In this document: positions 7,963 to 45,811 of the stretch, in pieces
How the letters are laid out: each line of letters begins with the position of its first letter
Numbering within the stretch: position 1 is the first letter of the stretch
Source of the DNA: a virus
Taxonomy: Duplodnaviria > Caudoviricetes
Virus record (IMG/VR): IMGVR_UViG_3300013121_000037
Coordinates: 1-64,000 of that record
Strand: one strand, 5' to 3'
Length of the DNA stretch: 64,000 nucleotides
Made by a program: the position numbers and the translations under genes
Notes under the pieces: model-generated
What the model saw: only the letters and a program-made list of their open reading frames with translations
Told to the model about the DNA's origin: nothing
Databases searched by the model: none

Positions 7963-8487
7963 ATGGGACGCCAGGAGCATCCGGCAGTGAAAGCGAAAAA
8001 ACTGGTCGCCAACTTTGGTCCGCGTCTGCGCGAATTACGCCAGCATCGCGGCTGGTCCATGCCCATGCTGGAGACAAAATCCGGTGTCCTCGGTGCCAAT
8101 ATCAGTGACCTGGAAATCAATGGCACCGAACCCACCTGGACCACTGTTTTGAAACTGGCCCTCGCCCTGGACATCAACCCCATGGAGTTCACCACCCCTG
8201 CCGGTAACCTCCCACCCCATCCTGACCTGCCCAAAGCCGGACGCCCCATCGAGGAACCGGACTGGTCGAAAATCTATCCCCGCCATGCCACCCAGAAAAC
8301 CCGCGCCGCCAGCCTCCTGCGCAACCTGCGCCTCCAGCGCCACCACAGCCAGGCAGCGGTCGGCAAACTCATCGGCGCCGACCAGGCCAAAGTCTCCGCC
8401 ATGGAGCGCGGTCAGGCCGCCCTCAACACCATCCTCCACGCCATTGAGATGCTTGGTGGCGATGTCAGCGAATTTGCGGAGAAGTAG
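7963..8487 (+). CDS. XRE-family regulator with two HTH domains
   Basis: FGPRLRELRQHRGWS...ISDLEING and LRNLRLQRHHSQAAVGKLIG...VSAMERG. Confidence 0.8.
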   Translation: MGRQEHPAVKAKKLVANFGPRLRELRQHRGWSMPMLETKSGVLGANISDLEINGTEPTWTTVLKLALALDINPMEFTTPAGNLPPHPDLPKAGRPIEEPDWSKIYPRHATQKTRAASLLRNLRLQRHHSQAAVGKLIGADQAKVSAMERGQAALNTILHAIEMLGGDVSEFAEK

Positions 8488-8545: not shown

Positions 8546-10573
8546 CTACCCCGTCAATCGTAAATCCCCCCGATACCACTTCACTCGCTCCTGCCAGTGC
8601 TGTTCGGCCCGCTTTCGGCGGTCCCGCAGCACCTGGTCAGTAGTGGGTGCAGAGTGGAAAGAGGGATAGTTAGATTCCGGTGTGGAGTGGTCTGGGTCTG
8701 ACTGGTGGAGTCGCAACCCGGGTGTGGCGACAGCGGCAAACTCGATGATGAGTCCGCAAATATAGTGATTGCCGATACCCGTCTCCTCACCGGGATCACG
8801 AAAGCCTCTGCGCACCGGCATCAGGATGCCCACCTCCACCAGCATCCGGCGAATGGCCACCTGATGATTGGCATAGTTGGCGATACCCACCATCTCCAGC
8901 AACCTGCCCAGATAGGTCAGGGAAAGTTCGTGATACTGTTCCACGTTGGCACAGACCAGACGCAGCAGATCCTCTGCCTGCTGGCGGGAACAGTGGGCGG
9001 TGAGCATGATGGTTGGTAGCAGTGATAGCATAAATGGTGTCCACACAATTTCCCGTGCTGGTGCGGGTTCATGTTTTCCTTTGGCCCGGTGCCAGGTCGA
9101 TGGATCCAGCACCCGGAAACCACTCTGCTGCCAGGCATCGGCAGCATGCTCTAACTTCTCGGTCGAACCTTCCGGGTCAGACTGGTAACCGTTGTTCTGC
9201 CAGATCGCGGTGGCAGTGTTGTTGACCACCCGCTCCAGTTCCGGCAGGCCACCGTTGTTCCCGGAAAGGCGGTCGCTGAACGATTTGTGGGGCAGGTCGT
9301 TCAGAAAACCCAGGATGGCCGTTACCGCTTCTTCCTTGCTCTCGCCCTGTGCCCAGGCCATGCGCAGGGCCACCACCAGATACTTGCCTAAACTGTCCGG
9401 TTCGGCCTGCAACTTACCGGTGAGAAAATCCACAATGACCTGCGCACAGCGGCCCTCCAGTCTGGGCATGTTGCCCATGCCGCTGGCTGCTGACTGGTCA
9501 AAAGTAGACAGTCGAGTTTTGCGCAGCGGTGGACTGTCCGGGCAGTTGGAACAGGCAGCCAAAAGTTCCTGCTCCACCACGGTCAGGTTGCACGGTGACC
9601 GGTTCGGGTTGGTGAGCCAGGTCCAGTACGCGACGGCGTCATGGGCCAGATAGTCCACCTTGTGGCGGTCCTCACCCTGGCCCGCAAACCGGTAAGCGGG
9701 AATTTTTGGGACAAGCAACTGGTCGATGATGGCGGGTCGGGTGGGGAAGAGTGGCAGAAACACCGCCTGCAGGTTATCGGGATAGATCTCGACACCAGCC
9801 AGCCCGGGACAGTTTCGGCGCAGGTCGCCCACCCACTCCTGTACCTGCTCTAGGCGCCACAGTTCGGGCAGGACCAGGCCAACATGGCAGCTGCCATTGC
9901 CCGGATTCAGATTGGCGATATGGGGTGCCAGGTCGGCATGGTAACTTTGCAGGTAGGTCAGGATGGATAGCACCCGCTCACAGTGCCAGGTGGCTTCCAC
10001 CGCGCCGCCGTGGCGGTCGATGTCGAGCAAAAGGTGCCGGGTTGCCCAACCCTGCCGCACCCCCTCGTGTGCCAACCCCTGGCGATGCCGCCGCAGGTCC
10101 AGAAACCCGCTGACCGTGCGAACCTCCCGCCCCTGCTCGTCATAGAGGCCGCGAATGTGCTGGCGGTCACTGCCCACCTTCCAGAGATGCCTGAGTAATT
10201 CCCACGCCTCACCCTGGCGATACTGGTCGATGGGAACCACACTGCTCGCGGCATAGAGGTTGACCCAGGTGGCCTGAGCGGAGTGTTCGAGGTGCTGTAT
10301 CTGCTGGAGGTCGGCAGCGGTGGGTGGTGCGGCAGTATTGAGTCGGTAGCGCAGGTCCCGAACGGTGGCCGCTGGGACAGGTGCTTCGGGACAGCGGCGC
10401 CAACCGGTGGGCCACTCGTGCAGCAGCAGCAACTGGCCACTGGAGTCACCAGTAACCCGCTGACCGGCCTGCAGCCAGTCCAGACGGGTACGCCCCACAG
10501 ATTCCGCGGCCCGTGCCGAGAAAAAACCTGGTTGACCTGTTGACGTTGGGAGGGGGATGATTGTAAGATTCAT
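8546..10573 (-). CDS. probable AEP-type primase-polymerase / replication protein
   Basis: hhhDhD (LLLDID), sxH (GNGSCHV) and VEIYP motifs in N-terminal half; contains in-frame 33-bp repeat. Confidence 0.55.
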   Translation of the reverse strand: MNLTIIPLPTSTGQPGFFSARAAESVGRTRLDWLQAGQRVTGDSSGQLLLLHEWPTGWRRCPEAPVPAATVRDLRYRLNTAAPPTAADLQQIQHLEHSAQATWVNLYAASSVVPIDQYRQGEAWELLRHLWKVGSDRQHIRGLYDEQGREVRTVSGFLDLRRHRQGLAHEGVRQGWATRHLLLDIDRHGGAVEATWHCERVLSILTYLQSYHADLAPHIANLNPGNGSCHVGLVLPELWRLEQVQEWVGDLRRNCPGLAGVEIYPDNLQAVFLPLFPTRPAIIDQLLVPKIPAYRFAGQGEDRHKVDYLAHDAVAYWTWLTNPNRSPCNLTVVEQELLAACSNCPDSPPLRKTRLSTFDQSAASGMGNMPRLEGRCAQVIVDFLTGKLQAEPDSLGKYLVVALRMAWAQGESKEEAVTAILGFLNDLPHKSFSDRLSGNNGGLPELERVVNNTATAIWQNNGYQSDPEGSTEKLEHAADAWQQSGFRVLDPSTWHRAKGKHEPAPAREIVWTPFMLSLLPTIMLTAHCSRQQAEDLLRLVCANVEQYHELSLTYLGRLLEMVGIANYANHQVAIRRMLVEVGILMPVRRGFRDPGEETGIGNHYICGLIIEFAAVATPGLRLHQSDPDHSTPESNYPSFHSAPTTDQVLRDRRKRAEQHWQERVKWYRGDLRLTG

Positions 10574-30945: not shown

Positions 30946-30956
30946 CGAATCCATCA

Positions 30957-30989
30957 CTGGTCAAAACTAGACAGTCTAGTTTTGACCAG
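30957..30989. repeat. 33-bp palindrome, fully symmetric example
   Basis: CTGGTCAAAA-CTAGA-CAG-TCTAG-TTTTGACCAG. Confidence 0.95.
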
Positions 30990-32021
30990 CAACCCGTGAG
31001 AGAACCCATGCGTACCACCAGGATCTTTCTCGGCAGTCCCAACTACTCGCCCTGCCATCCGCAGGCCCAGTTCGTGGACGCACCGCTACCCCCAGGTTAT
31101 CGCCGCGTCTGGTCCGGTGTGGCCAAATGCGGCGACCTGTACCCCCACTGTGTGCTGCTGCACGCCGGCATCCTGCACTGGTTACCCATCAGGGAACAGG
31201 ATCTGCAGGACCGCAACACCAGTACCGTGGACGGCTACCTCTGCCTCATCCGCCCCGATGGCGAGGTGGAGGTGGAACAACCCTGCGAGCGCTGCCAGGC
31301 ATTCCGGCGCTGGCACAAGTGGCGGTTCTGTCGCAGTTGTGGCAAGCAAAATATCCGCGAAGCGAAGCAGCAGTGCAGGTGAGCAAAAGTAAACAATCTC
31401 ATTTTGACCAGCGAGGAACCCATGAGCGAACCAGTGCAAATCGCCACCGATACCCTGCCCGAAGAGCGCGGTATTTTGCTCCCCTGTCCCTGTTGCGGCG
31501 AACCGGAGGCCACCATTGACCTGACGCTGGCCACCAGGGTACTGCATTGCCAGGAGTGCGATACCGAGTTCACCACGCAGGACGTGGCCAACCTCATCGC
31601 AAAGTGGCAACCCGTGCTGGCGTGGCTCCAGCAGATGCCCGGTGCGGAGTAACCACCATGCCCACCACGAAAGTCGCTCTGGCGCAGACACTGGCCTTCC
31701 AGTGCCTGCGCCAGTATGGCCATTACCACTGCCTGCAAATCTACCTCACCGCTCGCCCCGGTGCGGATGGCAGTCTGTGCGAGGTGAGCATGAATACCAG
31801 CATCCCAGATGGACACTGGCTCATCGCCACCGTGCAGCACCGGCAACCCCTCGAACAACTCATCGCCCGCATCCACCAGGCACTGGCACACGAAAGCATT
31901 GTTACTCCCGAACAACCACTTGCCTGACAGAACCACCACCTGAAACGCAGAGCAGGTGGGCAAAAGTAGACTGTTTACTTTTGCCCACCTGCTCTGCTTC
32001 AGGCATATCCCCATTTACCTA

Positions 32022-32579
32022 TCACCCATCACGCTTCTGCACAATGGCCTCGGCCAGTTCCTGGTCCGTGGTGATGCCGTCCAGACTCACCCCGTAGTAC
32101 CGTGCTGTGTACTCCTGCCCGTGCGAGAGAATATCCCGCAGTAACTGCGCCTCATCTGGTCCCTTATCCCTGTCCTCGTCTTCCTCTTCTTCCTCTGCCG
32201 GTGCTTCCCAGGTGTCGGGATCAGGGAAACCACCCGCGGGCAGCGGAATGTCCTTGACCTGAAAATTGTCCAGGCCCAGAGCCATCGTATCCCACTCGGC
32301 GTCAATCTCGGCGTCCGTCAAGCGCTGCCCCGTCGTGGGATTGAGTTCATATCCCTGTTCGTCGTACCACTCCGCAATGCCCTGCCAGTTACCCGGCAGG
32401 ACGCGATTGGCCCAGCGCTTCGCGTTTGCGGCCAGTTGCCGCAAATTCGGTGGCAACCGCCGAAAGGCCCGGCACTTTTGCAGTACCTGGCCAGTCGGGT
32501 ATCCTGGCGGCAGATGCGACTCGAAATACGGCGTGGCGTGATAACTGTTCAGCGACCAGATGCTGTAATGTGCGCTCAT
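32022..32579 (-). CDS. acidic hypothetical protein coupled to the polyvalent protein (possible immunity)
   Basis: ATGA overlap with 32576-39463; D/E-rich. Confidence 0.5.
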   Translation of the reverse strand: MSAHYSIWSLNSYHATPYFESHLPPGYPTGQVLQKCRAFRRLPPNLRQLAANAKRWANRVLPGNWQGIAEWYDEQGYELNPTTGQRLTDAEIDAEWDTMALGLDNFQVKDIPLPAGGFPDPDTWEAPAEEEEEDEDRDKGPDEAQLLRDILSHGQEYTARYYGVSLDGITTDQELAEAIVQKRDG

Positions 32580-35500
32580 TGGATGTTGTGTCCCGTCGCG
32601 TCCTCTTCCTGCACCACCAGGATGCTGCGGTTGGGGACCACATAGTAACCCTTGCCGTAACTGTAATGCCGCGATGACTTGCCATCTACCTCAATGGCGT
32701 CATAACCAGCCAGCGCTGCCTGAATCCCCAACCATTCATCCTCATCATTGTGACCGTCGCTGTTTCTGGTGGCGTGGTTACCGTTCTTGTTAAAAGTCTT
32801 CGGGCATTTGGGAACCAGTTTCTCCAGTTCCGATTGCTTGATAACCTTAGCAGTCCTGGGCAACGCCGCCCGCACAATCTCGCCAGCACCATAACCAGCG
32901 TATTTGCTGGCCGAATTGCCACTACCTTTGGTGCTGTCAAAGTAGGTGCCATCACCAAAACAACCATACCCGGGGAAATGCTCGCCTCGCTTGAACTGCT
33001 CCACCAGTTGCGCCGCGGTCCGTTTGCCGCTCCCGTAACCCGTATCCTTCAAGCCACGCAGCATCTCGATATGCTGACCAGTTTGCACCAGTTTATCAAA
33101 ATCTGCCTTCTTCACCACCTGCGGCAGACCATTGAAACCCCGCATCTCCTGCACCACATGCAGCGTGGCACTTCCAGGCGCATCCCCGGACTGCTTCTTG
33201 CGTTCCGTGTACTGCTGCACTGCCGGTACAATTGCTTCGATGAACTTCTTCAGGGGTTCCGACCCCTTGCCCCGGGTGGTCTGCTTGACCGAAATCGGTT
33301 GCACAGTCATCAGTTGCGCCAGATCATCCGTGCGGTGCAGCATCTGCGCCGCCTTCGCTGGCGTGGTCAGAGTCACCACCTCGCTTTCTGCCGCTGGTTT
33401 GCCCGTCTTCTGGCTGATGATGTGCGGTTCGATCTTCCCTGCCCACGGCGACCCACCCACTCGCTTGCCAACATATAAACGACCGAAGCGGGCTGTGTTG
33501 CTATCCTCGAAATCCCCCAGATGGCCGGTGATCTCCACCTGCAACCCCGTCTCCTCCCAGACCTCCTTGAGAGCGTTCTGCTGCATGCTCAAGCCCGGTT
33601 CGATTGTACCACCCGGCATGGTGTACTTGCGATCTCCGTAGGCGTTGGTCGGTTGCACGATCCAGATTCGCCCATCGGGTTCCTGTATCATCACGCTCAC
33701 CCGCTCGATCTTCTTGACCGGTGCCGGTTCCCCCACATTCTTATCCGGGGTCTTCTCCCAGAATTTTGGCGCTGCCGTTGTGAACGCCACACCATTGAGA
33801 ATTCCTGGTTTCGCCTTGCCCATCTCCCAGTTGACCTCATCCTTATCCAATCCTGGTGAGGTTGCGCCAGTGGTAGACGCTTTCCCGGGTGCTGCCGCTG
33901 GCTTGGTAGGCAAACTTTTGCTGTTGGCCTGGTTGGTGTCGCGCAGAAACTTCTTCAGGTCACGAGCGGCAAACGACTTGAACCAGTAACCTGATATATT
34001 GGGACCACCCACCCACCACGATAGTTCCGCCAGTTCCTGGCCATCGAGCAACGTATCAATCACGACATCAATATCGTCCAGATCAGTGCTAGATACCACC
34101 TGACCAGACACCAGATTGCGCAGGACATCAGCATGATTCTTGCGTACATTCCAGGTGCCAATTGGTCTTGGCAATGGTTGTCCCTGTGCCGCCGGACTGC
34201 CATTACCCGTTGACGCTGGTGTCTGTGGCGATACTGCTGGTGCTGGTGCCACGCGAGGAGGTGTGACTGGTGCCGGTGTTGAAGGTGGTGGCGTTGGTGC
34301 CTGTGGTGCTGGAACCGGCGCAGGTGGTGGCGTTGGTGGCGTAACTGGTGTTGGCGTCGGTACTGCCGGTGCTGGTTGCGGTGGCGCCGCTGGTGGCTTC
34401 TGGGCGTGATGCAGTTCCAGCACATGATTCAGTTGCGACAGACGCAGACCCAGTGCCGCCTTCTTGGCCCCGGTGGCGTTGTGGTGCTCCAGGGCAATCT
34501 GGTCAAATAGATCACCCAGACGCTTTTCCACATTGGCGCCGTGATACCGCTTGAGGGCACCGTGCGAGCGCCGCGCCGTCTTCTTGTGGTCTGCCGTCAG
34601 TGGATACTGCTTGCCAAAATCCGCCAGTTTATCCTTGAGAGACCTGTTGCTTGGCGGCAACGGTTGCTTTTTCGGCTTCGGCGCTGGTTTGGGCTGCGGT
34701 GCCGCCGTTGGCTTGGGTGTGGGTGTTGCCGGTTTCGGCGTGGCACTCTTGCCAAGCCCTGGATTGGTCTTCTTGTAGACCTTTCTGCCGGTGTGGATAT
34801 TTTCCCACACTGACCCGCCGCGTGACCCCGCCCCACTTTTGCCTTTGGGCAACTTGCGCCAGTCACTGGCCGCATAGCACACCGGCAACCGGTCCTGCTG
34901 ATACGAGGACTTCACCTCATCGACCTGCCAACCATTCTCCTCATCCCAGAACAGTTCCTGCCCAGAACCATCCAACTCTTCCAAAGCCGACTCCAGCAGG
35001 TCATCTGGCACAGTCTCCCCCAGGTCGTTGAACAGTCCCGCATACCATTCGGCCAGGGCGTGGGCGTCCACCGTGGCTTCCGGTGTGGCCGGTTCCAGCC
35101 AGTCCAGCATGTGGTCGATGCTGGACAACTTGCGGCCTATCTCTACTTGCCTGGTGCCGGTCGCCTTCCGGTGCTGCCTGTCCAGTTCATCGTGCAGCAC
35201 CGCCAACCGGTGCCGGATGTCGTCGCCATGCCGCCAGCGAAACTGACCCAGCGCCCGACGGGCCGAGTTGATTTCCCGCCCATTGAGAGGATGCTGCTGC
35301 CGATGCGGTTGCAGTTTCTGGCGCAGCAACTTCGGTGATGTGAGCGTGACAGGACTGGTCCTGCTCTGCTGGTATGTGGTTGGTTTGTCCTCGGCAGCAT
35401 CACCAACCACCCACTGCTCCCCATCCCAGCGGAAGGACACCCCTGGCAGATCGGCTGCCAACTGGTTCCAGATTTCATCGGGCACGTCCTCGCCAAAAGC

Positions 35501-38500
35501 ATCCAGCAAGGTGGCATACCACTGGGCCAGGTGCGCAAAATGCGACTGTTTACTTTTGCCCACCTCGGAGGAGGTTACCTCGGGGTCAATGAGACGCAGA
35601 CCGGTGATGTCATCCAGCACAAACTTGTTGCCAGGACGATCCTTGCCATAAGTCACGGGACGATTGCCGCCTTTGGCTGAACCTGGTACGCGCATCTGCT
35701 GTTCTCCCGCCCCCGGAATGTGCTTGAGTTTCACCAGCGTGAAATGGGTCAGCGCCCCCGGACTGAACTCAAACGGTACATTCTCCTCAACCCCCAGCAC
35801 TTCATAGGCCGAATCATGATCCTGTACCAGTTCGTACTCACCGCTGTTGGTGGACAGCGACTCCACATATATACCGCGGCGCGTCTCGATCTCAAAGGCA
35901 ATACCGCGGCCACCACCAAACGACTGTATCTTTTGCGGATCGAACGAGGTGGACACAAAACCCGGCGTTTGCAAAAACATCCCTTTTCGCTGGGCCTCTT
36001 TGGCCAGGTCAAGGAAGTTTGTTAAATCCTGGCCATGCAACTCAATACCACGCCAGACCAGCACCGGTTCCGGTAACACGGGCGCCCGCCGAATCACCTC
36101 GCGCAACCGCCCAAAGTTGCGCTCCTGCTTGTCATCCAGGTCAAACCCGCGCCGCAATGACCTGTTCAGGTCCTTGAAATTGTCATCCGTGTACCACTTC
36201 ACCGCATACTGGCCCGCCTCGGGTACCTCCGCCAGATACTCCCGCATCAGGTCCGCAATTTCTTCTGGCGCATCATCCTGATGGGTGACTGCAAACGACT
36301 TCCGCAACTGCTCCCGCTGCTCCGGAGTAAAATCCGATTCCCCCATCGGCACCGGTGACGGTTCCTCCGGCAGGTCCAGTCCGGAGAAATCATCGTCCAG
36401 GTATTCGTCCTCGTCGTCCCGGTCATTGTTCTCGGCGTAAGTTTCGCCATCGGACTTGGCTTCGTGGTAATCCTGGGTCCATTCCCCATGATCATCGTAG
36501 TCGTATTCCCCCATCGACTCCCAGCGGTACAGGTCCACCGGTTCACTGTCGGGATGATCGGGATAGGGGTTGTAGGTGGCGTGTACCACAGTGACACTGT
36601 GTTCCTCACCGCCATCTTTCCAGGTGGCCACCAGGTCATCACTGCCGGTCGGTTCCACCCGATCCGGTTCAATGGTGCCATCCCAGTCCGGAGCCTGATG
36701 CTGCTCCTCGGCATACTTCACCCCCGCGTCCACCGCCTCCTCTTCCGAGGTGGTCCACTCACTCAGCGCCTCGCCATCATCATCTTCACAGCGGAACACC
36801 GGTACCGGTTCACTGTCCTCGTCGGGTTGGTACGTCCCCTTGACCAGTATCACGTCATGCTTCGTTGACTCACTGCTGCCATCTACCTCGTACCAGGACT
36901 TGATCTCCTCCGTATCGCCAATCTCCACCTCGTCCGGGTCAATGGAGCCATCCCATGCCGGTTTCGTGGCAGGCGGTGGCGCTACCGTCCTGTCTGCTGG
37001 TTGCTCTGGACTGGCAGTCCTGCCTGCCCGCGGCGACTTTGGCTGCGCTACCCGCTCCGGTCGCGCTGACCGGTCACCAGTGGGTTTCCTGGTCAACCGG
37101 GATTTCTCGGCAGGCGTGGCAGTGGCCAGCACATCGTCAGGGATGAACCACCCACCTGGAAAATGCTGGCCCCCAATATCAATGCCGCCCTTCGGCGCAT
37201 GCCGCACCTCATAATGCCGCGACTGGTCAAAATGCGACTGTCTAGTTTTGCCCACCTCCTGCCCATCCTGGGGGAAATCATCCGCCACTGGCGTGATGAC
37301 GTAGAAGTGGTCCCAGTCGTTATCCACGAAGCGGTTATAGTCCGGGTCCTCTGGTTTTTCCGGGTCAGCGTCATCCTGTTCTGGATTGGTGGCAGGACTG
37401 TCCTGGTAAAACAGGGGCAGAGCGTCCTGCTGGTAGTTGGCTCCCGTCACCCAGTTGGACAACCGCCTGAGCAGTGTACGCGGTGGCAACTGTGGAGCAG
37501 CTTCACCAGGTTGTGGAGGCACTTGCTCCATCTCAATCGTGGTGTGCCCCGTGTGGTCCGTGCTGACCTTGTGTACCTTGAACTGCGAGGTGTGATTGAG
37601 TAACAGTTCCTTTTCTGCCTCCTGGAAATGACCATGCGGCGTCACATCCAGACCATGCTTCGCCACAATCCGCAGTGTGACCAATCCCCGAAATGACACT
37701 GGAACTTCCTTTGCTGTCGAGGTGGACACATATCCTCCCATCAGCGTCGTGCCTTTGGCATGTGCCACCCCTGTCATTCCTTCAACAAATGCAGCAGCAT
37801 CTCGCTTTACCTTCTCCACTTGCTCCGGAGTCATGTTCGGTTTGATCTGGAACATGCCACGCACCACGTTGACCGGTTCACGGAACACATTCGCCTTACG
37901 AAAGGCATTCTGCAGGTGCTCGTGCGTGGCGGCGACCCGGTTGGGAATTTTTTTGCCCCGCCGCAAGGCCCGGTTCAAGGGTTGATCACCCTTGTAGGTA
38001 TAGTGCAGTACCGCTGCCGCCTCGTCCTGAGTCAGGTCGGGACGCGCCCCGTCTTCCAGTTTGGCATTGGGCGCAGCCCGCTCCAGAGGTGCCCGCATCC
38101 AGGCCCGCTGCACATGCTCCTTCATGTGCGGTTCAGCCCGCTCCCATTGCTCCTTCGAGATTACCGAACCTCCCGGGTGCTTGATACCAGCAATCTCGAT
38201 CTTGCCCTTCGGGGCATGCTGCCCTGTCTGCAATTGTGCCCGTTCCTGAGGTGTGGCTCTGGCTACCACCTCGGAAGGAACATATTCCCCACCCTTGAAA
38301 AACGTCCCCTGGATGGTGGCCCCGCCCTTCGGCGCATGTACCACCTCATAATCCAACCGCTCATACTCTCTCGGTGGCGTTAGCAAATGCTGGGCCCGCG
38401 GCACCACAGCATCCGCCAGCGTCAACGCCCGCGCCAGCGACCTCGTCTCATCCAGACTGGCCAGCACCGCCGCCTGGTACAGGTCGCTATTCCCAGCTGC

Positions 38501-39463
38501 ATTCATCCTCTGCAGTAGCGTAGCCACCAGCGAGGCCGGAACCCGGCCATACTGCAGCGGTTGCCCTGACCGCTGATACGGTGCGTGCAGGTCACGCTCC
38601 TGTAGCGACTCTTCCATGTCCTTCTGCTGCACAAAGCGGGTCGTTTCCCGGACCGCCGTCCGCACTGCCCGCAAGGTCGCCATGGGGTTGGTGACCGTGC
38701 TGTAAGCCAGATAGGCCAGACTGCCCCACGGAATCAGGTTGATCGGTAACGCCAGATTCGACAGTTTCAGGGCAGTCAGCGTCTCATCCAGGTATTCCTG
38801 CCGCTTCTCGCTGGCTACCGGTAGCAATACCGCGGCCGGGTCCTCCACAAAGGCATCGGCAGCATCCATGGCGGTGTCCAGGAACTCATCCGCCACCGCC
38901 ACAATGGCCGCGGTCTTCGCCACACTCTCCGGGCTGCCACCCTGCTCCCGGGCTACCTCCTTCACCAGTTCCAGCGCCGACTTTCTGGGTAACTCCAACA
39001 ACTCCTGCACTGCCGCCACCTGCTCTTTGAGATGATCCGGCACCTTCTGGAGTTGCTTCAGCAGGAAAAGTCCCGCCTCGGTTTCCGTCTGGCCAATCTT
39101 CTCCAGCACTTTTTGGCCCACCTGTGCCAGCGGTGCATGCCACCCTGGTTTCGCTGGTGCTGGTCGTGGTTGCGGTTTCTGCTGGATATGCTGTGCCCGC
39201 CGCTGGCCCAGTTTCCGCACCTTCGGTTGCGGCACGCCCGGTCTGGCACGACCAGTTGGTTTGACTGGTGCTGGAGTGGCTTTGGGAGTGGGTGCTGCCG
39301 TACTGCCGCCGCTGCCCTTCTTCGCGAATTGTCCCTTGTTCTTCGGCTGACCCCGCGGGTGCTGCTGGGCATCGAAGTCGTAGTGCAGAGCTTGCAGCGT
39401 GGCCAGTTCGTCCAGGGCACGTTGATAGGCCACCACATAGCGATCCGCAGGCATATCGGTCAT
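32576..39463 (-). CDS. 2295-aa polyvalent protein: two VIP2-like ADP-ribosyltransferases, NUDIX hydrolase, C-terminal ART-like domain
   Basis: ART1 YT...LNRALR...VVRG...STS...EKELL; ART2 YT...LNRSLR...VWRG...STS...EYELV; NUDIX PGGTIEPG...ALKEVWEETG; N-terminal HPRGQPKNKGQF motif. Confidence 0.8.
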   Translation of the reverse strand: MTDMPADRYVVAYQRALDELATLQALHYDFDAQQHPRGQPKNKGQFAKKGSGGSTAAPTPKATPAPVKPTGRARPGVPQPKVRKLGQRRAQHIQQKPQPRPAPAKPGWHAPLAQVGQKVLEKIGQTETEAGLFLLKQLQKVPDHLKEQVAAVQELLELPRKSALELVKEVAREQGGSPESVAKTAAIVAVADEFLDTAMDAADAFVEDPAAVLLPVASEKRQEYLDETLTALKLSNLALPINLIPWGSLAYLAYSTVTNPMATLRAVRTAVRETTRFVQQKDMEESLQERDLHAPYQRSGQPLQYGRVPASLVATLLQRMNAAGNSDLYQAAVLASLDETRSLARALTLADAVVPRAQHLLTPPREYERLDYEVVHAPKGGATIQGTFFKGGEYVPSEVVARATPQERAQLQTGQHAPKGKIEIAGIKHPGGSVISKEQWERAEPHMKEHVQRAWMRAPLERAAPNAKLEDGARPDLTQDEAAAVLHYTYKGDQPLNRALRRGKKIPNRVAATHEHLQNAFRKANVFREPVNVVRGMFQIKPNMTPEQVEKVKRDAAAFVEGMTGVAHAKGTTLMGGYVSTSTAKEVPVSFRGLVTLRIVAKHGLDVTPHGHFQEAEKELLLNHTSQFKVHKVSTDHTGHTTIEMEQVPPQPGEAAPQLPPRTLLRRLSNWVTGANYQQDALPLFYQDSPATNPEQDDADPEKPEDPDYNRFVDNDWDHFYVITPVADDFPQDGQEVGKTRQSHFDQSRHYEVRHAPKGGIDIGGQHFPGGWFIPDDVLATATPAEKSRLTRKPTGDRSARPERVAQPKSPRAGRTASPEQPADRTVAPPPATKPAWDGSIDPDEVEIGDTEEIKSWYEVDGSSESTKHDVILVKGTYQPDEDSEPVPVFRCEDDDGEALSEWTTSEEEAVDAGVKYAEEQHQAPDWDGTIEPDRVEPTGSDDLVATWKDGGEEHSVTVVHATYNPYPDHPDSEPVDLYRWESMGEYDYDDHGEWTQDYHEAKSDGETYAENNDRDDEDEYLDDDFSGLDLPEEPSPVPMGESDFTPEQREQLRKSFAVTHQDDAPEEIADLMREYLAEVPEAGQYAVKWYTDDNFKDLNRSLRRGFDLDDKQERNFGRLREVIRRAPVLPEPVLVWRGIELHGQDLTNFLDLAKEAQRKGMFLQTPGFVSTSFDPQKIQSFGGGRGIAFEIETRRGIYVESLSTNSGEYELVQDHDSAYEVLGVEENVPFEFSPGALTHFTLVKLKHIPGAGEQQMRVPGSAKGGNRPVTYGKDRPGNKFVLDDITGLRLIDPEVTSSEVGKSKQSHFAHLAQWYATLLDAFGEDVPDEIWNQLAADLPGVSFRWDGEQWVVGDAAEDKPTTYQQSRTSPVTLTSPKLLRQKLQPHRQQHPLNGREINSARRALGQFRWRHGDDIRHRLAVLHDELDRQHRKATGTRQVEIGRKLSSIDHMLDWLEPATPEATVDAHALAEWYAGLFNDLGETVPDDLLESALEELDGSGQELFWDEENGWQVDEVKSSYQQDRLPVCYAASDWRKLPKGKSGAGSRGGSVWENIHTGRKVYKKTNPGLGKSATPKPATPTPKPTAAPQPKPAPKPKKQPLPPSNRSLKDKLADFGKQYPLTADHKKTARRSHGALKRYHGANVEKRLGDLFDQIALEHHNATGAKKAALGLRLSQLNHVLELHHAQKPPAAPPQPAPAVPTPTPVTPPTPPPAPVPAPQAPTPPPSTPAPVTPPRVAPAPAVSPQTPASTGNGSPAAQGQPLPRPIGTWNVRKNHADVLRNLVSGQVVSSTDLDDIDVVIDTLLDGQELAELSWWVGGPNISGYWFKSFAARDLKKFLRDTNQANSKSLPTKPAAAPGKASTTGATSPGLDKDEVNWEMGKAKPGILNGVAFTTAAPKFWEKTPDKNVGEPAPVKKIERVSVMIQEPDGRIWIVQPTNAYGDRKYTMPGGTIEPGLSMQQNALKEVWEETGLQVEITGHLGDFEDSNTARFGRLYVGKRVGGSPWAGKIEPHIISQKTGKPAAESEVVTLTTPAKAAQMLHRTDDLAQLMTVQPISVKQTTRGKGSEPLKKFIEAIVPAVQQYTERKKQSGDAPGSATLHVVQEMRGFNGLPQVVKKADFDKLVQTGQHIEMLRGLKDTGYGSGKRTAAQLVEQFKRGEHFPGYGCFGDGTYFDSTKGSGNSASKYAGYGAGEIVRAALPRTAKVIKQSELEKLVPKCPKTFNKNGNHATRNSDGHNDEDEWLGIQAALAGYDAIEVDGKSSRHYSYGKGYYVVPNRSILVVQEEDATGHNIQ
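35531..35563. repeat. 33-bp palindrome in-frame in polyvalent protein
   Basis: Encodes VGKSKQSHFAH. Confidence 0.95.
37223..37255. repeat. 33-bp palindrome in-frame in polyvalent protein
   Basis: Encodes VGKTRQSHFDQ. Confidence 0.95.
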
Positions 39464-39589
39464 CGTCTCGTCTCCTCTGACAGATGCCTGCCAGAGTAGA
39501 CGAAAACGGAATCCAGTGAGAAATGCGGTCCGAGATGAGCACTGCGCAAAATGTAACTGTCTACTTTTGCGCAGTGCCAGTGGAATGGG

Positions 39590-39787
39590 TCAATCCAGAT
39601 TGGTCTGGTCAGCCTGTTCAGCCAGGATGTCGCTGGCGCGGTCGGCGACCTGCTGCGGGTCCAGACCCTGCTGCTGGGCTTTCTGAACCAGTGCCTTGTG
39701 CGCCCGGCGTTCTTTGGCCACCTCGGCAGAACTCTCCTCGGCGTCCAACCATTCTTCAGTGCTCAACTGCAATTCGTCCGGCATCAC
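39590..39787 (-). CDS. small acidic protein downstream of GNAT domain (possible immunity)
   Basis: 65 aa, overlaps stop of upstream gene. Confidence 0.5.
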   Translation of the reverse strand: MMPDELQLSTEEWLDAEESSAEVAKERRAHKALVQKAQQQGLDPQQVADRASDILAEQADQTNLD

Positions 39788-41727
39788 GCACCACCTTTCC
39801 GCTTCTGGAGATACTTCGCCAGTTTGTACTGCGCCCAGGAATTCTCCCGCAGGTCAAACCGCGCCTCATTCAGACTCTGCCCATGCACCAACCACCAATC
39901 CGCACCGGTGATCTTCTCCCGCTTCCGCTCCGGTCGCCCCCGCTTTTTGTCAAACTCGGACAACTTCGTCCTTATATTATTCGCTTCCTCGGGTGGAAGA
40001 TTTACTTCAGGTGCGTCAAAGATGTCCTGCACCGTTTCGGCATCCGGGAACAGTGCGGCCACCTTCTGGCCCAGACTGCCCTGATAGACTTTGAGCGTGG
40101 CAATGGTCTGGTCGTAGCCAAAGAGCGGCCAGGTGTAGTAACCATTCATGCCGCCGCCAAACCCGCCTGCCGCCCAGGTGGCAATGTAGTCAAATCCATG
40201 CGCCGTAGCGTTGTCTACCTGTCGGGTGAAGAGTTCCAGACCAACGCCTTTGGGGGCACTGTCGGCAGTTTCCAGCAACAGGTTGTGGATATAACGCCGC
40301 CCCTGACTGTCCACGCCAATAAAGCGCTCGGCAGAATCCAGATGGGTATGGAAACCATCCACCCGGAGTCCCCAGGAACCCGGCACGTCGTCATCCTCCC
40401 CCACCCGCAGCACCGTCACACGGCCATCATCTGGCATGCCCGCCAGTGACGCCAGCGCCTGGTAGGCAGCCTTCTCCTGCTCTGCGGACGTACCAGTATG
40501 GAATGCCTGTGGGAACAGTTTTCGTAACTGGTCCAGCACCTCCTGTCTGGATACACCACGCTCCAGAGACACCGAAGCCTGACTGACCGGCAACCGCTCC
40601 CGCTCATAAGGTGGCGCCTGCGCCGGTACAATCGCCTGCAGGTTGTCCAGTTCATCCTCAACCGGTTCCGCTTCCTCTTCTTCCTCCTCCGGAAGCGGCA
40701 TATCCTGTTCATCAGCCCGCTCGTTAACTTCGGCAACCACCTGGTCACGGTCTGTGGACCAGTCCCCTACCGCAGTTTCACTGTTGCTGCTGTCCCGTTC
40801 CTCCCAGCGCCACACATCCTGTGCTTCACTGTCAAGATCATCCGGGTAGGGGTCATAGGTACCCGGAACCACATAGATGTTCTGCTCCCAGACATTGTTA
40901 TCATCATCCACATGGTTCCAGGATCGCGTCAGTTCCCGGTCCCGCCAGTCCCGGTCCACAGCGTCATCGTCAATCGTGCCATCCCAATCAGGCAAATCCT
41001 CATTATTATCGCTGGCATAAGAATTGCCGTCCTCAATGGCTTGCTGGCGGTCAGCAGTCCACTCACCCACCTCCAGTTCGTTGCCAGCGTCATCCCTGGC
41101 CTCCCAGCGCCACACATCCCGAATTGGACTACCACTTACATCTGGGAAGGGATCATACTCCCCGTGTACCAGAACCACCTGATTTTGTTCTGGCACACCA
41201 TGCCGATTCACGGTGCGAAAACGCTGCAATCTCTCTGCTACCCGCTCATCAGGGGCAACCGTGTCAATGTTCTCATCCACCGTGCCATCCCACTGCGGTA
41301 GCGGTTTCGGTTTGCTGGATGGTTTATCCTGCGCTGGCTTGCTGGCAGGTTTCCCACCCGCTGGCTTTTCCGGACGCTCAGGCGGCGTCTGCCGGGGTTT
41401 CTGCCCACCACCCGGTTTCCCGGTCAACCGTGCCTTCTCCGCTGGCGTAGCCTGGGCCACCACCTCTGCCGGGATGAACTGGCCCCCCTTGAACTTCTGG
41501 CCCCCAATCGAGATGCCGCCCTTCGGCGCATGGCGTGCCTCGTAATGGGCCGACTGCGTAAAAGTAGACTGTTTTGTGGAAAAACTTTTGCCCACATCGT
41601 GATCGTCCACCACGGGCAAGTCAGCGATACCCCAATCAGCAGGGACTGGTTCAGCGGCAGACACCAGTGTGATATGACTGGTGTCATCATCCAGAAACCT
41701 TGACCGTTGCGCAGTTGCTATCATCAT
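39784..41727 (-). CDS. polyvalent protein with C-terminal GNAT-like acetyltransferase
   Basis: KGVGLELFTRQV...GFDYIATWAAG...NGYYTWPLFGYD; ATG 41727 overlaps portal stop. Confidence 0.65.
   Translation of the reverse strand: MMIATAQRSRFLDDDTSHITLVSAAEPVPADWGIADLPVVDDHDVGKSFSTKQSTFTQSAHYEARHAPKGGISIGGQKFKGGQFIPAEVVAQATPAEKARLTGKPGGGQKPRQTPPERPEKPAGGKPASKPAQDKPSSKPKPLPQWDGTVDENIDTVAPDERVAERLQRFRTVNRHGVPEQNQVVLVHGEYDPFPDVSGSPIRDVWRWEARDDAGNELEVGEWTADRQQAIEDGNSYASDNNEDLPDWDGTIDDDAVDRDWRDRELTRSWNHVDDDNNVWEQNIYVVPGTYDPYPDDLDSEAQDVWRWEERDSSNSETAVGDWSTDRDQVVAEVNERADEQDMPLPEEEEEEAEPVEDELDNLQAIVPAQAPPYERERLPVSQASVSLERGVSRQEVLDQLRKLFPQAFHTGTSAEQEKAAYQALASLAGMPDDGRVTVLRVGEDDDVPGSWGLRVDGFHTHLDSAERFIGVDSQGRRYIHNLLLETADSAPKGVGLELFTRQVDNATAHGFDYIATWAAGGFGGGMNGYYTWPLFGYDQTIATLKVYQGSLGQKVAALFPDAETVQDIFDAPEVNLPPEEANNIRTKLSEFDKKRGRPERKREKITGADWWLVHGQSLNEARFDLRENSWAQYKLAKYLQKRKGGA
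41554..41595. repeat. 42-bp variant palindrome in-frame in GNAT protein
   Basis: Encodes VGKSFSTKQSTFTQ. Confidence 0.9.
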
Positions 41728-44513
41728 ACCACCTGATCCAGATACAGGACATGCACGGTTTTCTGGCCCACTTTTTTTTGTTCCATCCTGGTGCAAGCAA
41801 AGCGACTGTTATGCGGTAGCATCATTTCATCCTCTTTAGGAACCATGCTATAGGGCATGCCATCCAATCCCAGTCGTGCTCGAATCACCAGCACCACATC
41901 TCCTTCTTTTACAAACTGATGCTGGTCACTGGTACTGGTAGAAACAATGCCAGCAAATTGCAGCAGTTTGCCTTTTTTGGCCTGCAGTGACTCCTGCGCA
42001 TCGGCCACCAATTTCTTGACAAAGTCATTGCCAGCATGACCGCTTACCCCGCGATAAACAGTCACCGGTTGCGCAAACGGTTGCGCCTTGGCAAACGCTG
42101 TCTCCAGGTGCTGTAACAGTTGAATGTCAGTTTTCGTGGCCTTGCCTTGCTGACGCAAGACCACATTTAACTGTTCGTGATAACCAGAACCAGCATAAGC
42201 ACCGATGGAATTCTTTTCGGCATTGGTCAAACTGGGACGGGTCGCATCGGGTAGCAACCTGTTGGGACGATTACCAGCATGGGGCAGAAAATCCTGATCG
42301 AAATCAAGTTGCTGGGGCATGCTTTTCAGTGCGGTCTGCAAATATTCCTTGGTAACCGTTGGCTCATACAATTTCGCCAACTTCAGCAGGCGGTCCCAGT
42401 CGGCATCTTTGGCCAAATCTGCCGTGCCTTCCTGAAACATCAAGCGCTTGAGTACACGCTGCGTGCGGGCCGCTTTGCCCTGCACCAGTTGCCCCACATG
42501 CTCGGCAACCACCTTGCCCACATCACCTACCACATGATGCCGAATGCCTGCTTCACGCGCCACCTCCTGCTGGTAGCCAAACGGCAGCGCGTTAACCAGG
42601 TCGGCCAGATGCTCAACATCACCTGGGGACAATTCGTCGGCACTCAGCATGGCCTGCACGTGAGCATGCACCTGCTCCTTTGTTTGGGGCTTGATGTCGG
42701 GATGGTGTTCATCCACCGCTTTCTTGCCCAGCAATTTGCCCAGCCACCCCGGCGAATTGGCCTGTGCCTTCAGAGCAGCCACCTTGCGCGGTTCACTCTT
42801 CTCCGCCGCCTGCAGTGCCGTATCCGGGATGAACCGTCCCCCCGGATAGAACGTCCCGTTGACGGTTACCCCACCCCTGGGCGCATGCACCTGCGCGTAA
42901 TGCGCCGACTGCGCAAAACTCGACTGTCTACTTTTGCCCACCCGCTGCATTTGTGCCGCAGGTTCCTGGTCGGCACCACCGTCCAGCCACTCATCTCCCT
43001 CCCGCTCCGGTACAGGTGTCTGCCCCAGCAAACTGTCGTCCTCTTGCTGCTGGTCAGCGTCCGGTGGTTGCTGCTGATCCATCCCGGGTTGTCCAGGCAT
43101 GCCACCGGGTTGCTGCTGCTGGCCCCCAATGACCTCATCACCCTCCTGCGGTGCGGAGGCACCTGTCAGGGCGCGTACCTCGTCCATGATGAACGTGACC
43201 CCCAGACTGGCCGCCGTCTGGATGGCCTGCAGTCGCTTCTGCGGGTCCGGTTCGTCGATGTCAAAGACCCAGCGCGGATAGATCCGGTCATAGGTGTCCG
43301 GCAAGGTCCAGCGCTGAATTACCCGCACAAAATCCCAGGTCAGCGTTTCCGCCAAATTGTTGGCATCAAAAGCAATGATCTTGCTCTTGGTGGCTGCGTG
43401 CATGGCCGCCACCCCCGTACCACCCAACCCCGAACCCTCCGTGTCCGAGGATAACGTCTGCCCTATGATAAACCGCTCCTGGAACTCGTCAATGTAGGTG
43501 ATGAGCTTGAACAGCAGTTCCGGTCCCGCCGTGGCCACATCCACATATTCCACCGGGGCCTTTTGCTGTGAATCCGGATTGCGCGGCACCAGGATATTGA
43601 CCCTTCGGGCATTGTCCTCCGCCGCCTCCTGCACCTCGCGCCGACTGCGGTCATTGCCGCTCTCGTAATACCAGAGCCGTACCCCCAACCCCGCCCGTTC
43701 GGCCCAGTCCGAGATGTTGGAAATCCACTCCATTTTGAGCCAGTTCCACCAGTACAGCACATGCCGCAAACCAATGCCGTGAATGGCCTCCGCCATCTCC
43801 GCATTCAGAAAGTCCTCATCGGAGACAATGTGCCGGTGAATGATGAACCGCTCACGCCAGTCCTGCCTTCTGAGCACCACCGCCCGCCCCCCCATCGTGC
43901 TGGAGGTGTACTCGATGCTGGCATTCGGGATGTCATCCTCCCCCGAGGCTGCATAGACGTGGATCCATGGGATATGGTCGTAGGTGTGGCCAATCTTGTC
44001 GCCATTGACCGGCAGATGCCGCTCGGCCACCAGCGAGCGAATCCCGCCAATGGCGCGGAATTGCCAGTCCAGTTGCACACCGTAACGACCATACCAGACC
44101 GCATCCAGCAGATTGCGAATCAGGTGGAACAGATAGGGAGTGCGGCGAATCACACTGGTCAGGTGCTTCTTGACAAACGTGTGCTCCTCATCGCGGTCGT
44201 CATCGGTGTCCAGATGCCATTTGAGCGAGACGGTCCCCAGATAGCGTTCCTGCAACTTGCCCATCAGGTTGACATCCACCCGCATGGCCAGAGCATCTTC
44301 CCGCGAGTGTCGCATCGCCTCATCAAAGCGCCCGTGAAAATACTTGCGCCAGGCCAGACCCAGGAAGGAGTTGAAGGTCAGGACATGCGGGATGGCAAAA
44401 CCATCGGACATTTCGCTATAGCGCACCGGAGTGCCATCCGGATACACCAACCCGCCTTGTGGCTGAGATGGCGAAAAAAAACCGTTGTGTCGCTGGCCAT
44501 TGACCGGAAACAT
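41724..44513 (-). CDS. portal protein (DUF935/Mu gp29-like) fused to C-terminal VIP2-like ART
   Basis: LLDAVWYG...IIGQTLSS...LAETLT...PRWVF portal pattern; tail AY...LNVVLR...VYRG...STS...EDEMML; start MFPVNG at 44513. Confidence 0.8.
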   Translation of the reverse strand: MFPVNGQRHNGFFSPSQPQGGLVYPDGTPVRYSEMSDGFAIPHVLTFNSFLGLAWRKYFHGRFDEAMRHSREDALAMRVDVNLMGKLQERYLGTVSLKWHLDTDDDRDEEHTFVKKHLTSVIRRTPYLFHLIRNLLDAVWYGRYGVQLDWQFRAIGGIRSLVAERHLPVNGDKIGHTYDHIPWIHVYAASGEDDIPNASIEYTSSTMGGRAVVLRRQDWRERFIIHRHIVSDEDFLNAEMAEAIHGIGLRHVLYWWNWLKMEWISNISDWAERAGLGVRLWYYESGNDRSRREVQEAAEDNARRVNILVPRNPDSQQKAPVEYVDVATAGPELLFKLITYIDEFQERFIIGQTLSSDTEGSGLGGTGVAAMHAATKSKIIAFDANNLAETLTWDFVRVIQRWTLPDTYDRIYPRWVFDIDEPDPQKRLQAIQTAASLGVTFIMDEVRALTGASAPQEGDEVIGGQQQQPGGMPGQPGMDQQQPPDADQQQEDDSLLGQTPVPEREGDEWLDGGADQEPAAQMQRVGKSRQSSFAQSAHYAQVHAPRGGVTVNGTFYPGGRFIPDTALQAAEKSEPRKVAALKAQANSPGWLGKLLGKKAVDEHHPDIKPQTKEQVHAHVQAMLSADELSPGDVEHLADLVNALPFGYQQEVAREAGIRHHVVGDVGKVVAEHVGQLVQGKAARTQRVLKRLMFQEGTADLAKDADWDRLLKLAKLYEPTVTKEYLQTALKSMPQQLDFDQDFLPHAGNRPNRLLPDATRPSLTNAEKNSIGAYAGSGYHEQLNVVLRQQGKATKTDIQLLQHLETAFAKAQPFAQPVTVYRGVSGHAGNDFVKKLVADAQESLQAKKGKLLQFAGIVSTSTSDQHQFVKEGDVVLVIRARLGLDGMPYSMVPKEDEMMLPHNSRFACTRMEQKKVGQKTVHVLYLDQVV
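42909..42941. repeat. 33-bp palindrome in-frame at portal/ART junction
   Basis: Encodes VGKSRQSSFAQ. Confidence 0.95.
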
Positions 44514-44586: not shown

Positions 44587-45811
44587 GTAAACTTCCCCCC
44601 GCCTTCAGGCGTGGGGCTTTCCGGCTGAGCATTAGCCCGCCAGTTCTGGGGCAGCGTTACGAGACTGCCCAAGCCATGAAAGATTCACGGCGGCGTTGTA
44701 ATCGGCGTTCGTGGAGTATTCGCAGTGCAGACAACGAAACTCACTCTGACTCTTGCGGTTGCCCTTCTCGCAATGTCCACACTGCGAGCAAGTCCGGCTG
44801 GTGTTGCGTGGATCAACAAGGATCACTGGGACACCGGCAAGTCGAGATTTGTACTCCACGAACGAACGCAACTGAAAGAAGGACCAACCTGCATGACGTG
44901 CTCGTTGCCGCTTGCGAAGCCGTTGTTCCGTACGCTGGCGAATGCCCGTGAGTTCTTCCAGGGCAATGCCGCGTCCGGTGCCTTTAGCCGTGGCAACAAG
45001 CTGCTTGCTGATCCGATGGTTTTCGTGTCGCCGAAAGCGTGCTTCACGCCCGGCCAGATTCTTCAATCGCTTCTTCGCTCCTCTGGTTCCTTTCTTCTGC
45101 AACCGGCAACGGTTGCGCTGATGTTTCTGGCGAACATTTTCAACTTGCTCACCGGTGTGAGTGTTGCCATCCGAATCGGTGGCGATATTGACGATGCCCA
45201 GATCGACACCAATGAAGTCCGTGGCTGGGACAGGCGAACCGTCAGGAACATCTACAGTGACGAGCAAAAACCACTTGCCGTCCTTGCGCAGCACGAGATC
45301 GGCTTGCCCCTTACGCAGCGTGAACCGTTCACGCTGGTAAGCCCCAAGTACAAAGGCGACCACGATACGACCCGTCAATGTCCACAGACTTACACGGTCG
45401 ATACCCTGAAAGCCCATGACACGCTGGTCGTACGTTATAGCGGCGTGCTTGCGGAACCTGGGACGTTTACTCCTGTCCCGCTTGTACGCTTCGACAACGC
45501 GATGGATGCACAGAATAGCCGTCTGCGCTGACAACTCAAAACGCTCCCGGACCTCACGATAGAGGAGTTTTTGGGCGGTGATCTTGTTGGCGAGTTGGCG
45601 TGAGAACAACTCGCCGGCAATCCAGTCGGCGGCAGCGTTAAATCGCTCCATCGTCTGGCGGAGAGTTTCCTTTTGTTCGGCGTCAGGTAGCAATTGGAGT
45701 TGCACGGTAAGTTTCATGCTTTTATCTTAGGAATGATTCACTCAAAGGTCAATTAGTTGCAACGCGATTCCTCCCCATGCCTTTAGGCAAGGGATTCCTC
45801 GCTAGGTTCAG
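44587..45811 (-). mobile_element. IS200/IS605-family (IS1341-type) solo-tnpB element; boundaries approximate
   Basis: Subterminal hairpins AAGCCCCACGCCTGAAGGCGGGGGGAAGTTTAC (right end) and CCCTTGCCTAAAGGCATGGGG (left end); no tnpA. Confidence 0.75.
44632..45717 (-). CDS. tnpB: RNA-guided nuclease TnpB
   Basis: RuvC GVDLG / IALEEL / NADYNAA plus CSQC...CLHC zinc finger. Confidence 0.95.
   Translation of the reverse strand: MKLTVQLQLLPDAEQKETLRQTMERFNAAADWIAGELFSRQLANKITAQKLLYREVRERFELSAQTAILCIHRVVEAYKRDRSKRPRFRKHAAITYDQRVMGFQGIDRVSLWTLTGRIVVAFVLGAYQRERFTLRKGQADLVLRKDGKWFLLVTVDVPDGSPVPATDFIGVDLGIVNIATDSDGNTHTGEQVENVRQKHQRNRCRLQKKGTRGAKKRLKNLAGREARFRRHENHRISKQLVATAKGTGRGIALEELTGIRQRTEQRLRKRQRARHAGWSFFQLRSFVEYKSRLAGVPVILVDPRNTSRTCSQCGHCEKGNRKSQSEFRCLHCEYSTNADYNAAVNLSWLGQSRNAAPELAG

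Follow-up and report, generated by a model that had tools for sequence, protein, structure and literature searches.

Evenly spaced palindromes, probably docking sites, punctuate a portal-linked polyvalent effector array and the phage genome around it

Introduction

Do palindromes that separate the modules of a phage effector array mark points at which the modules are exchanged, or do they serve something unrelated to the array? The question is raised by the IMG/VR virus record IMGVR_UViG_3300013121_000037 (Duplodnaviria; Caudoviricetes), a linear sequence of 112,344 bp with 58% G+C and an estimated completeness of 79% (CheckV), the first 64 kb of which (64,000 nt) are referred to here as the window. 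On the minus strand between 44.5 and 32.0 kb, a portal gene and the genes behind it carry a series of effector modules, with six palindromic sites distributed among them. A sequence-only reading of the locus had proposed that these sites, in frame and in one orientation, are the exchange points of a cassette-shuffled effector system delivered by virions. Our analysis supports the effector array itself and indicates that the palindromes belong to a genome-wide family which, on balance, probably represents docking sites, merely tolerated in protein linkers and overlaid on the array.

Results

A palindrome family that spans the genome

The window contains 33 copies of the core CAAAA-N4-AC-N-GT-N4-TTTTG, where 0.17 would be expected by chance, and the complete record contains 56. 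With its arms, the element covers ~39 bp and forms an oriented quasi-palindrome, one half of which is mostly CAAAAGTAGAC and the other CAAAATGCRAC or CAAAACTCGAC, around an invariant AC(A/T)GT centre; neither target-site duplications nor conservation of the flanks were found outside these 39 bp. The copies are spaced evenly, with a mean distance of ~2 kb and a largest gap of 5.4 kb, compared with 9-10 kb expected. The coefficient of variation of the spacing is 0.59-0.60. Randomly placed sites would give 0.98 (P about 1e-4) and sites drawn at random from gene boundaries 0.99, and none of 20,000 simulations of the latter kind reached the observed value.

Most copies are located -24 to +30 nt from the stop codon of the upstream gene, and for some genes the TAG of the element serves as the stop codon itself. 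Orientation agrees with transcription at 36 of the 50 assignable sites (72%; 14 anti-oriented; P 0.0026), and all four copies among plus-strand genes are plus-oriented (Fisher P 0.013). The six palindromes of the array were confirmed at the places first reported for them, five as canonical copies, with the central ACTGT on the plus strand, and one as a decayed copy (41554). The single orientation ascribed to all six is correct as well, but because ~70% of all sites point the same way as the minus-strand genes, it is unremarkable and not special to the array.

Two close pairs of palindromes, at 50112-50222 (88 bp apart) and 59879-59958 (57 bp apart), are possible true operators or a control region. 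The copies of the first pair have opposite orientations and lie in a ~1-kb gap without a confident gene.

Internal copies in protein linkers

Five copies are truly intragenic: the array accounts for four, and a 675-residue protein outside it contains the fifth. All five fall into inter-domain linkers and are read in the same frame (Table 1). For the four array copies this agrees with the sequence-only reading, in that translation of the minus strand yields V-G-K-x-x-Q-S-x-F in each; the overall consensus of the read-through peptide, (V/L)(G/R)K(S/T)(R/K)(Q/L)SxFxQS, is hydrophilic. Among the copies that were read through, the other two frames give Cys-containing or hydrophobic peptides, and the common half-site variants GTAG, CTAG and GTAA create a stop in one of them. 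The shared frame can be attributed largely to the paralogy of the junction copies, described below, and further to the fact that this frame produces a hydrophilic peptide free of Cys and stop codons.

The most likely reading is that the family serves as double-stranded sites at which a phage DNA-binding protein docks, similar in kind to stoperators or operators. If the sites have to be kept evenly spaced, with no gap allowed to exceed ~5 kb, then the largest genes, of 2-7 kb, must carry internal copies, which would be retained in inter-domain linkers alone and in no frame but the one encoding a hydrophilic peptide. On this view, the palindromes would coincide with module borders since nothing but the linkers tolerates them, and not as a result of module exchange. 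Three or four of the array copies would share frame and position through a single duplicated junction, composed of RFxDD, linker, site and HAPKGG. The decayed copy (41553-41594) reads TAAAA in place of CAAAA, and an in-frame insertion of 9 nt (3 codons) separates its ACTGT from TTTTG; since its neighbour sites are only 1.35 and 2.0 kb away, such decay would be expected if spacing is all that matters.

A portal-linked array of polyvalent effectors

The domain content of the array, its place beside the portal and terminase genes (large terminase, 51165-52868) and its homologues in the head regions of many phages support the view, already taken in the sequence-only reading, that the minus-strand genes between 44.5 and 32.0 kb encode portal-fused or portal-adjacent polyvalent effectors, comprising three ADP-ribosyltransferases (ARTs), a GNAT-like domain, a NUDIX domain and a further ART-like fold. 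The array amounts to ~3,900 residues over three genes, and the modules delimited between the sites are real: portal and ART, WDG repeats with the GNAT-like domain, ART, WDG repeats with ART, and the duplicated helical domain with NUDIX and the ART-like fold. The features are listed in Table 1.

Table 1. Coordinates of the array genes, domains, leaders and palindromes, and of features discussed with them (window positions)
Feature	Coordinates	Strand	Details
Portal-ART3 gene (P0001; P0006 from the probable start)	41724..44513	minus	Open reading frame (ORF) open to 44672; probable start ATG 44513, 929 residues
Portal_Mu domain	~43164-44285	minus	Pfam; P0001 130-503
ADPrib_exo_Tox domain (ART3)	41742-42236	minus	Pfam; P0001 813-977
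P0002	39784..41727	minus	RFLDDD, decayed site, HAPKGG leader (41398-41532), two WDG repeats, GNAT-like C-terminal fold (~39790-40467)
P0005, acidic ORF	39590..39787	minus	65 residues
P0003, polyvalent protein	32576..39463	minus	2295 residues
P0003, first half, in order		minus	N-terminal region, HAPKGG leaders (38204-38338), ART1 (37526-38062), RFVDND, site
P0003, middle, in order		minus	HAPKGG leader (37067-37201), two WDG repeats, ART2 (35783-36241), KFVLDD, site
P0003, last part, in order		minus	Duplicated helical domain, NUDIX (33491-33703), ART-like fold (32588-33121)
P0004, acidic protein	32022..32579	minus	185 residues; conserved partner gene of the NUDIX and ART-fold unit in other phages
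HAPxGG leader copies	42753-42887; 41398-41532; 38204-38338; 37067-37201	minus	First copy HAPRGG...GGxFIP, in the ART3 module
Palindrome	42908..42940		Linker after the portal domain; minus-strand reading RVGKSRQSSFAQS (42914)
Decayed palindrome	41553..41594		In P0002; minus-strand reading DVGKSFSTKQSTFTQS (41554)
Palindrome	39541..39573		Intergenic; 14 nt past the P0005 stop, 77 nt ahead of the P0003 start
Palindrome	37222..37254		P0003 linker; minus-strand reading EVGKTRQSHFDQS (37228)
Palindrome	35530..35562		P0003 linker; minus-strand reading EVGKSKQSHFAHL (35536)
Palindrome	31955-31987		Long, nearly perfect form 31947..31997 (25-nt arms, 96% complementary); between the operon end and the convergent plus-strand block
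Fifth truly intragenic palindrome	9499..9521		In a 675-residue protein (8546-10573, minus); linker CPDSP-PLRKTRLSTFDQS-AASGMG, equivalent frame
Repressor-like gene, two HTH_31 domains	7918..8487	plus	Pfam, PHROGs
TnpB (OrfB_IS605 and Cas12f-like TNB)	44632..45717	minus	Directly upstream of the portal gene

The three ARTs (in P0003, residues 468-646 and ~1075-1227, Pfam ADPrib_exo_Tox) match PF03496 with 54.9, 97.1 (two stretches) and 49.3 bits, compared with a curated cut-off of 23.4. All three retain the S-T-S motif (P0001 911; P0003 580 and 1171) and the E-x-E motif (EDE 947 in P0001; EAE 615 and EYE 1209 in P0003), so that profile and motifs alike point to membership of the Alt/VIP2-type (R-S-E) family. 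The NUDIX domain (P0003 1921-1991) scores 41.7 bits against the NUDIX hydrolase profile PF00293 (cut-off 21.1); its Nudix box, G-x5-L-x7-K-E-V-W-E-E-T-G-L, deviates from GX5EX7REUXEEXGU in that the first E is replaced by L and the R by K, with the EE pair retained. The duplication of the helical domain is significant (local score 148 versus 34+/-5 in shuffles).

Neither the 'GNAT' domain at the C-terminus of P0002 nor the 'ART-like' domain at that of P0003 was named by Pfam or by sequence searches of the PDB, and for this reason predicted folds were needed. The AlphaFold2 model of the P0002 domain (predicted local distance difference test score, pLDDT, 96) has NatD, Naa50 and PaiA as its best Foldseek matches, with E-values of 6e-4 to 3e-2 and low template-modelling scores; the domain has 1199 homologues, located at varied positions within giant multidomain proteins, and 3 of 20 homologues match GNAT Pfam models weakly (E 1e-4 to 1e-3). 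The best structural matches of the P0003 fold are nearly all ARTs (cholix toxin, exotoxin A, ParT, diphtheria toxin, MbcT and PARPs), with middling Z-scores of 5-6.5, and a cyanophage A4 pre-ejectosome chain is matched as well (Z 6.5). The two labels given in the sequence-only reading are therefore weakly to moderately supported by the predicted folds, and they lack a Pfam match. Of the signature domains of polyvalent proteins, the array gave no more than a weak LPD22 match (E 0.029, below the cut-off), and an Atlas lead pointed to an ART-PolyVal cluster (score 0.91).

P0002 begins at ATG 41727 rather than at 41796, and this start codon overlaps the portal stop in an ATGA. At the other end of the operon, the minus-strand ORF 31235-32014 (259 residues) has a codon-usage score of -13 and, by this measure, is not coding, which places site 31956 past the last gene of the minus-strand operon (P0004 stop, 32022) and before the convergent plus-strand block. 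Five genes were recognised by codon usage in this block (28950-31652), which holds sites 30962 and 31384, both plus-oriented.

Phages are known to encode portal/MuF fusions and head-packaged ART and Nudix effectors (Iyer et al. 2017, PMC5512222, on polyvalent proteins; PMC9503650, a survey of NAD-ADPr systems). Like these systems and T4 Alt, the array combines unrelated effector domains in one polypeptide (two ADPrib_exo_Tox domains, NUDIX and an ART-like fold in P0003; portal and ART in P0001), is fused to or located beside the portal in the packaging-head region, and contains domains whose homologues appear at varied positions in giant proteins. It differs in its unusual length, with three paralogous Alt/VIP2-type ARTs, in the repeated RFxDD-linker-HAPKGG junction, and in linkers that carry copies of a genome-wide DNA site. 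On the model of T4 Alt, of MuF fusions and of polyvalent proteins, the products of the array are most likely made late, packed into the head and delivered with the DNA; the one structural hint of delivery is the match of the P0003 C-terminal fold to the cyanophage A4 pre-ejectosome chain.

An old leader within a repeated junction

Most effector modules open with a leader of ~45 residues, (Y)ExxHAPxGG(V/I)x(V/I)xGxxFxGGxFIPxxVxAxATPxEKxxL. The same leader was found in nine distant portal-fusion relatives (P0009, P0010, P0013, P0036, P0050, P0103, P0118, P0120 and P0123), either behind the portal domain or within the fusion, and in none of the nine is it preceded by the VGKSxQS peptide, indicating that the leader is an old protein motif and the palindrome a lineage-specific addition at the DNA level. 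No Pfam model was found for the leader or for the RFxDD-linker-HAPKGG junction; the leader might act as a signal in packaging, docking or processing.

RFxDD motifs precede three of the sites, and the three RFxDD junctions are alike on both flanks of the site. WDG(T/S) repeats occur twice in P0002 and twice in P0003, and residues 32-469 of the former align with residues 710-1095 of the latter at 33% identity (E 2e-60). This homology begins at RFxDD, 30-45 residues before the palindrome, and continues across it. Because the module homology starts upstream of the palindrome and spans it, the palindrome is an internal part of the repeated junction and not its breakpoint.

Relatives rearrange the modules without the palindromes

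At the C-terminus, portal homologues with 35-60% identity frequently bear different effectors (TopoIB, 2H ligase, ART-PolyVal, InPase, ART, PI3K-like), and the closest long relative (P0008, on a 50-kb contig) shares 53% identity in the portal. The NUDIX and ART-fold unit is found elsewhere as a stand-alone gene (48-59% identity), with a P0004 homologue (43-50% identity) behind it. The phages concerned have portals of another family (Phage_portal_3), and the unit stands right behind portal or MuF-like genes. This conserved two-gene cassette corresponds to 32022-33703 in the window, 10001-11646 in contig L043 and 3198-5077 in contig L044.

The palindrome family is absent from the DNA of all relatives retrieved, and the contigs L001, L021, L022, L043 and L044 show no over-represented 12-mers at all. 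Modules thus move in this phage group without palindromes, given that the relatives rearrange the same modules as whole genes or fusions; the expectation of module swaps with junctions at the palindromes finds no support in these relatives, and the alternative that the sequence-only reading itself had named, namely, sites merely tolerated in linkers, holds in a weaker form, being drawn from distant relatives. No DNA or portal-protein match was obtained among known phages (INPHARED), and peptide patterns retrieved no portal relative from IMG/VR. Among sequencing runs, one activated sludge DNA run contained 7% of the words, in short, identical, low-depth contigs with no informative joints, and no RNA run was among the matches listed.

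A dispersed element of another kind was observed in L020, a 115-kb JGI contig with the portal relative P0077. This element of ~18-23 nt (GAGGCTGGCCAGAGGGAG, core CTGGCCAG) is present in ~9 good copies in 24 kb, in both orientations, with several copies directly ahead of start codons and one in the linker behind the portal domain; it is not clearly analogous to the palindrome family.

Duplex DNA or RNA hairpin

The variation among copies accords better with duplex DNA being recognised by its sequence, through two unlike half-sites, than with an RNA or cruciform structure. The arm variants TGCG, TGGG and TGGT pair almost independently on the left and right, without covariation (P 0.09). Between the two halves of a copy, the inner tetranucleotides are less alike than in shuffled pairs (P 0.0014). 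Mismatches on the sense strand comprise 27 G-U and 35 A-C pairs, with no G-U excess; hairpin energies range from -2.3 to -31.4 kcal/mol; and T-tails are absent from the sites as a class, with no enrichment at the sites in a scan of 1-20 kb for sigma-70 promoters and intrinsic terminators.

These results bear on the rival that survives best, in which the copies are stem-loops in long minus-strand transcripts, acting as 3'-end stabilisers similar to repetitive extragenic palindromic (REP) elements, as RNase III-type processing sites or as factor-dependent terminators, with the intragenic copies tolerated or serving as attenuators. Such an RNA element would account for sites a few nucleotides from stops and ahead of the next start and for the 72% co-orientation with transcription; many copies are able to form stable hairpins, and copy 1416 has a T-tail like that of an intrinsic terminator. 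The arms nonetheless lack covariation, the inner halves are mismatched beyond chance, the hairpin energy is not conserved, and cuts or termination within ORFs of 2-7 kb would leave mRNAs without stop codons, all of which makes an RNA element unlikely. The CsrA homologue encoded in the record was dropped as an RNA binder of the site, which has no GGA. A dif/Xer site was dropped as well, the arms being 13 bp apart rather than 6; the arm GGTGCGCAAAA resembles the XerC arm of E. coli dif.

As to the binder of a duplex site, the product of the repressor-like gene at 7918-8487, with its two helix-turn-helix (HTH) domains, appears to be the best candidate, and the two domains would fit two unlike half-sites. 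A co-oriented palindrome (7829-7851) lies ~60-105 nt upstream of this gene.

Relics, selfish elements and crossovers

Less likely again is the possibility that the modules were once separate genes, each with an intergenic copy behind it, which were fused through stop loss and thereby froze the sites in linkers. The order stop, site, start is indeed the rule elsewhere in the genome, array site 39541 remains intergenic, and other phages encode the NUDIX and ART-fold unit and its P0004 partner as genes of their own. However, the true gene border within the array, between P0001 and P0002 (41727), is located upstream of RFLDDD, ~45 codons before the site; the stand-alone NUDIX unit starts near P0003 residue 1900, ~600 residues past site 35531; and the fused polyproteins of distant relatives already contain HAPxGG leaders without sites.

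We consider improbable a selfish miniature element, similar to REPs or miniature inverted-repeat transposable elements, that was spread by a transposase of the IS200/IS605 or REP-associated tyrosine transposase (RAYT) type into gene ends and occasionally into tolerant linkers. The high number of very similar copies and the two TnpB genes in the record are compatible with such an origin, and bacterial REPs and REP-based mosaic elements (BIMEs) with RAYT are likewise palindromes of ~35-40 bp, present in many copies after stop codons within operons. In contrast to REP/BIME systems, no RAYT or Y1 transposase (PF01797) was found in the record, 79% complete as it is, there is no hairpin signature, the even spacing is unexpected from selfish insertion, and target-site duplications are lacking, as is flank conservation beyond the 39 bp. 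Searches for the palindrome returned only chance matches, with 8 single ones in 185,579 species genomes, 16 single ones in JGI metagenome contigs, all low in GC and without similarity to this genome, and none in IMG/VR; hence no REP-like family was found in a host.

Very improbable, in our assessment, is the proposal from which the question arose, that the in-frame, co-oriented palindromes are crossover sites at which a phage tyrosine recombinase or homologous exchange duplicates, deletes and swaps effector modules. The geometry would permit it, since the four intragenic sites have a common frame and orientation, and each interval between sites holds one module. Paralogous modules are present (three ARTs and two HAPKGG-WDG blocks), the DNA similarity of the junction copies starts at the palindrome, left and right halves mix freely, the invariant centre could be a common overlap region, and the record encodes a tyrosine recombinase. 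Yet the 56 sites lie in both orientations amid essential genes, which promiscuous exchange would delete or invert, and the protein homology of the duplicated modules runs across the site from well before it. One array site has decayed, a fifth in-frame copy belongs to a gene elsewhere in the genome, the same modules are shuffled in relatives whose retrieved DNA lacks the palindrome, and the gene for the integrase (91311-92375), the only tyrosine recombinase found in the record, is ~50 kb away from the array. Cassette shuffling at the palindromes is accordingly unsupported by this record and by the distant relatives compared with it. Least probable of all is a double role, in which the palindromes also serve as crossovers between co-infecting relatives at the 39-bp identities, in the manner of integron cassettes inside coding sequence: imperfect palindromes right after ORF ends and an encoded tyrosine recombinase are shared with integron attC cassettes, but here the sites border on genes essential for structure and replication, and do so in both orientations (14 of 50 inverted relative to transcription), it is the sequence that is conserved and not the structure, which shows no covariation, no integrase, attI or promoter platform adjoins the array, and no exchange was seen.

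Docking sites compared with stoperators

Docking sites for a DNA-binding protein have their closest counterpart in the stoperators of Cluster A mycobacteriophages, of which up to ~30 are distributed across a genome, oriented with transcription (PMC6550527). The palindrome family resembles the sites of L5 gp71-type repressors (PMC6550527, PMC9283540) in its dozens of genome-wide copies, about one per 2 kb and mostly in short intergenic gaps, in the orientation bias relative to transcription, in the temperate appearance of the phage and in the lineage-specific sequence of the site, and it differs in that the candidate binder has two HTH domains.

Several points weigh against docking sites. The element is a 39-bp quasi-palindrome with unlike inner half-sites, whereas the stoperator is a 13-bp asymmetric site, and the 72% agreement in orientation is weaker than that reported for L5. 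Tight clustering at stop codons is what an RNA element at 3' ends might show as well. Of the five intragenic copies, three are paralogous, which leaves ~3 independent events behind the frame rule (chance ~1 in 9). The DNA similarity among the junction copies starts at the palindrome, as would also be predicted if the palindromes were the junctions. Finally, the two-HTH protein is a candidate only as the sole Cro/CI-type HTH protein among the called genes of a 79%-complete record.

Should the sites be repressor roadblocks, stoperator-like silencing would extend beyond actinobacteriophages, probably to a phage of Planctomycetes. The case would also exemplify how a genome-wide system of DNA sites constrains protein evolution, with sites written into the tolerant places of giant genes in a single frame. 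Where one palindrome recurs throughout a genome, its presence at module borders does not speak for shuffling. Independently of the sites, the array is a large and clearly modular addition to head-packaged polyvalent effectors and exposes a leader common to many portal-fusion phages.

Other features of the record

Nearly all genes of the window are carried by the minus strand, among them a major-head-like gene (21756-22844). The phage looks temperate, encoding both an integrase and a repressor-like HTH protein. An actinobacterium is probably not its host; the planctomycete Tuwongella contains one of the portal homologues. The record also encodes a sliding clamp and, as putative counter-defence and host-control genes, an Acb2/Tad1-type hairpin-domain protein, a Lar-like restriction alleviation protein, the CsrA homologue, a dCTP deaminase, and D12 and N6/N4 methyltransferases.

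The TnpB gene next to the portal gene is an insertion between the portal start and the gene upstream. A second one, also with OrfB_IS605 and Cas12f-like TNB domains, is located at 72921-74117 of the record, and both are without TnpA. Far from the portal, an effector-like protein of 946 residues with an ART-PolyVal domain is encoded at 13456-16296 on the minus strand; palindrome copies lie on its flanks, and none is internal.

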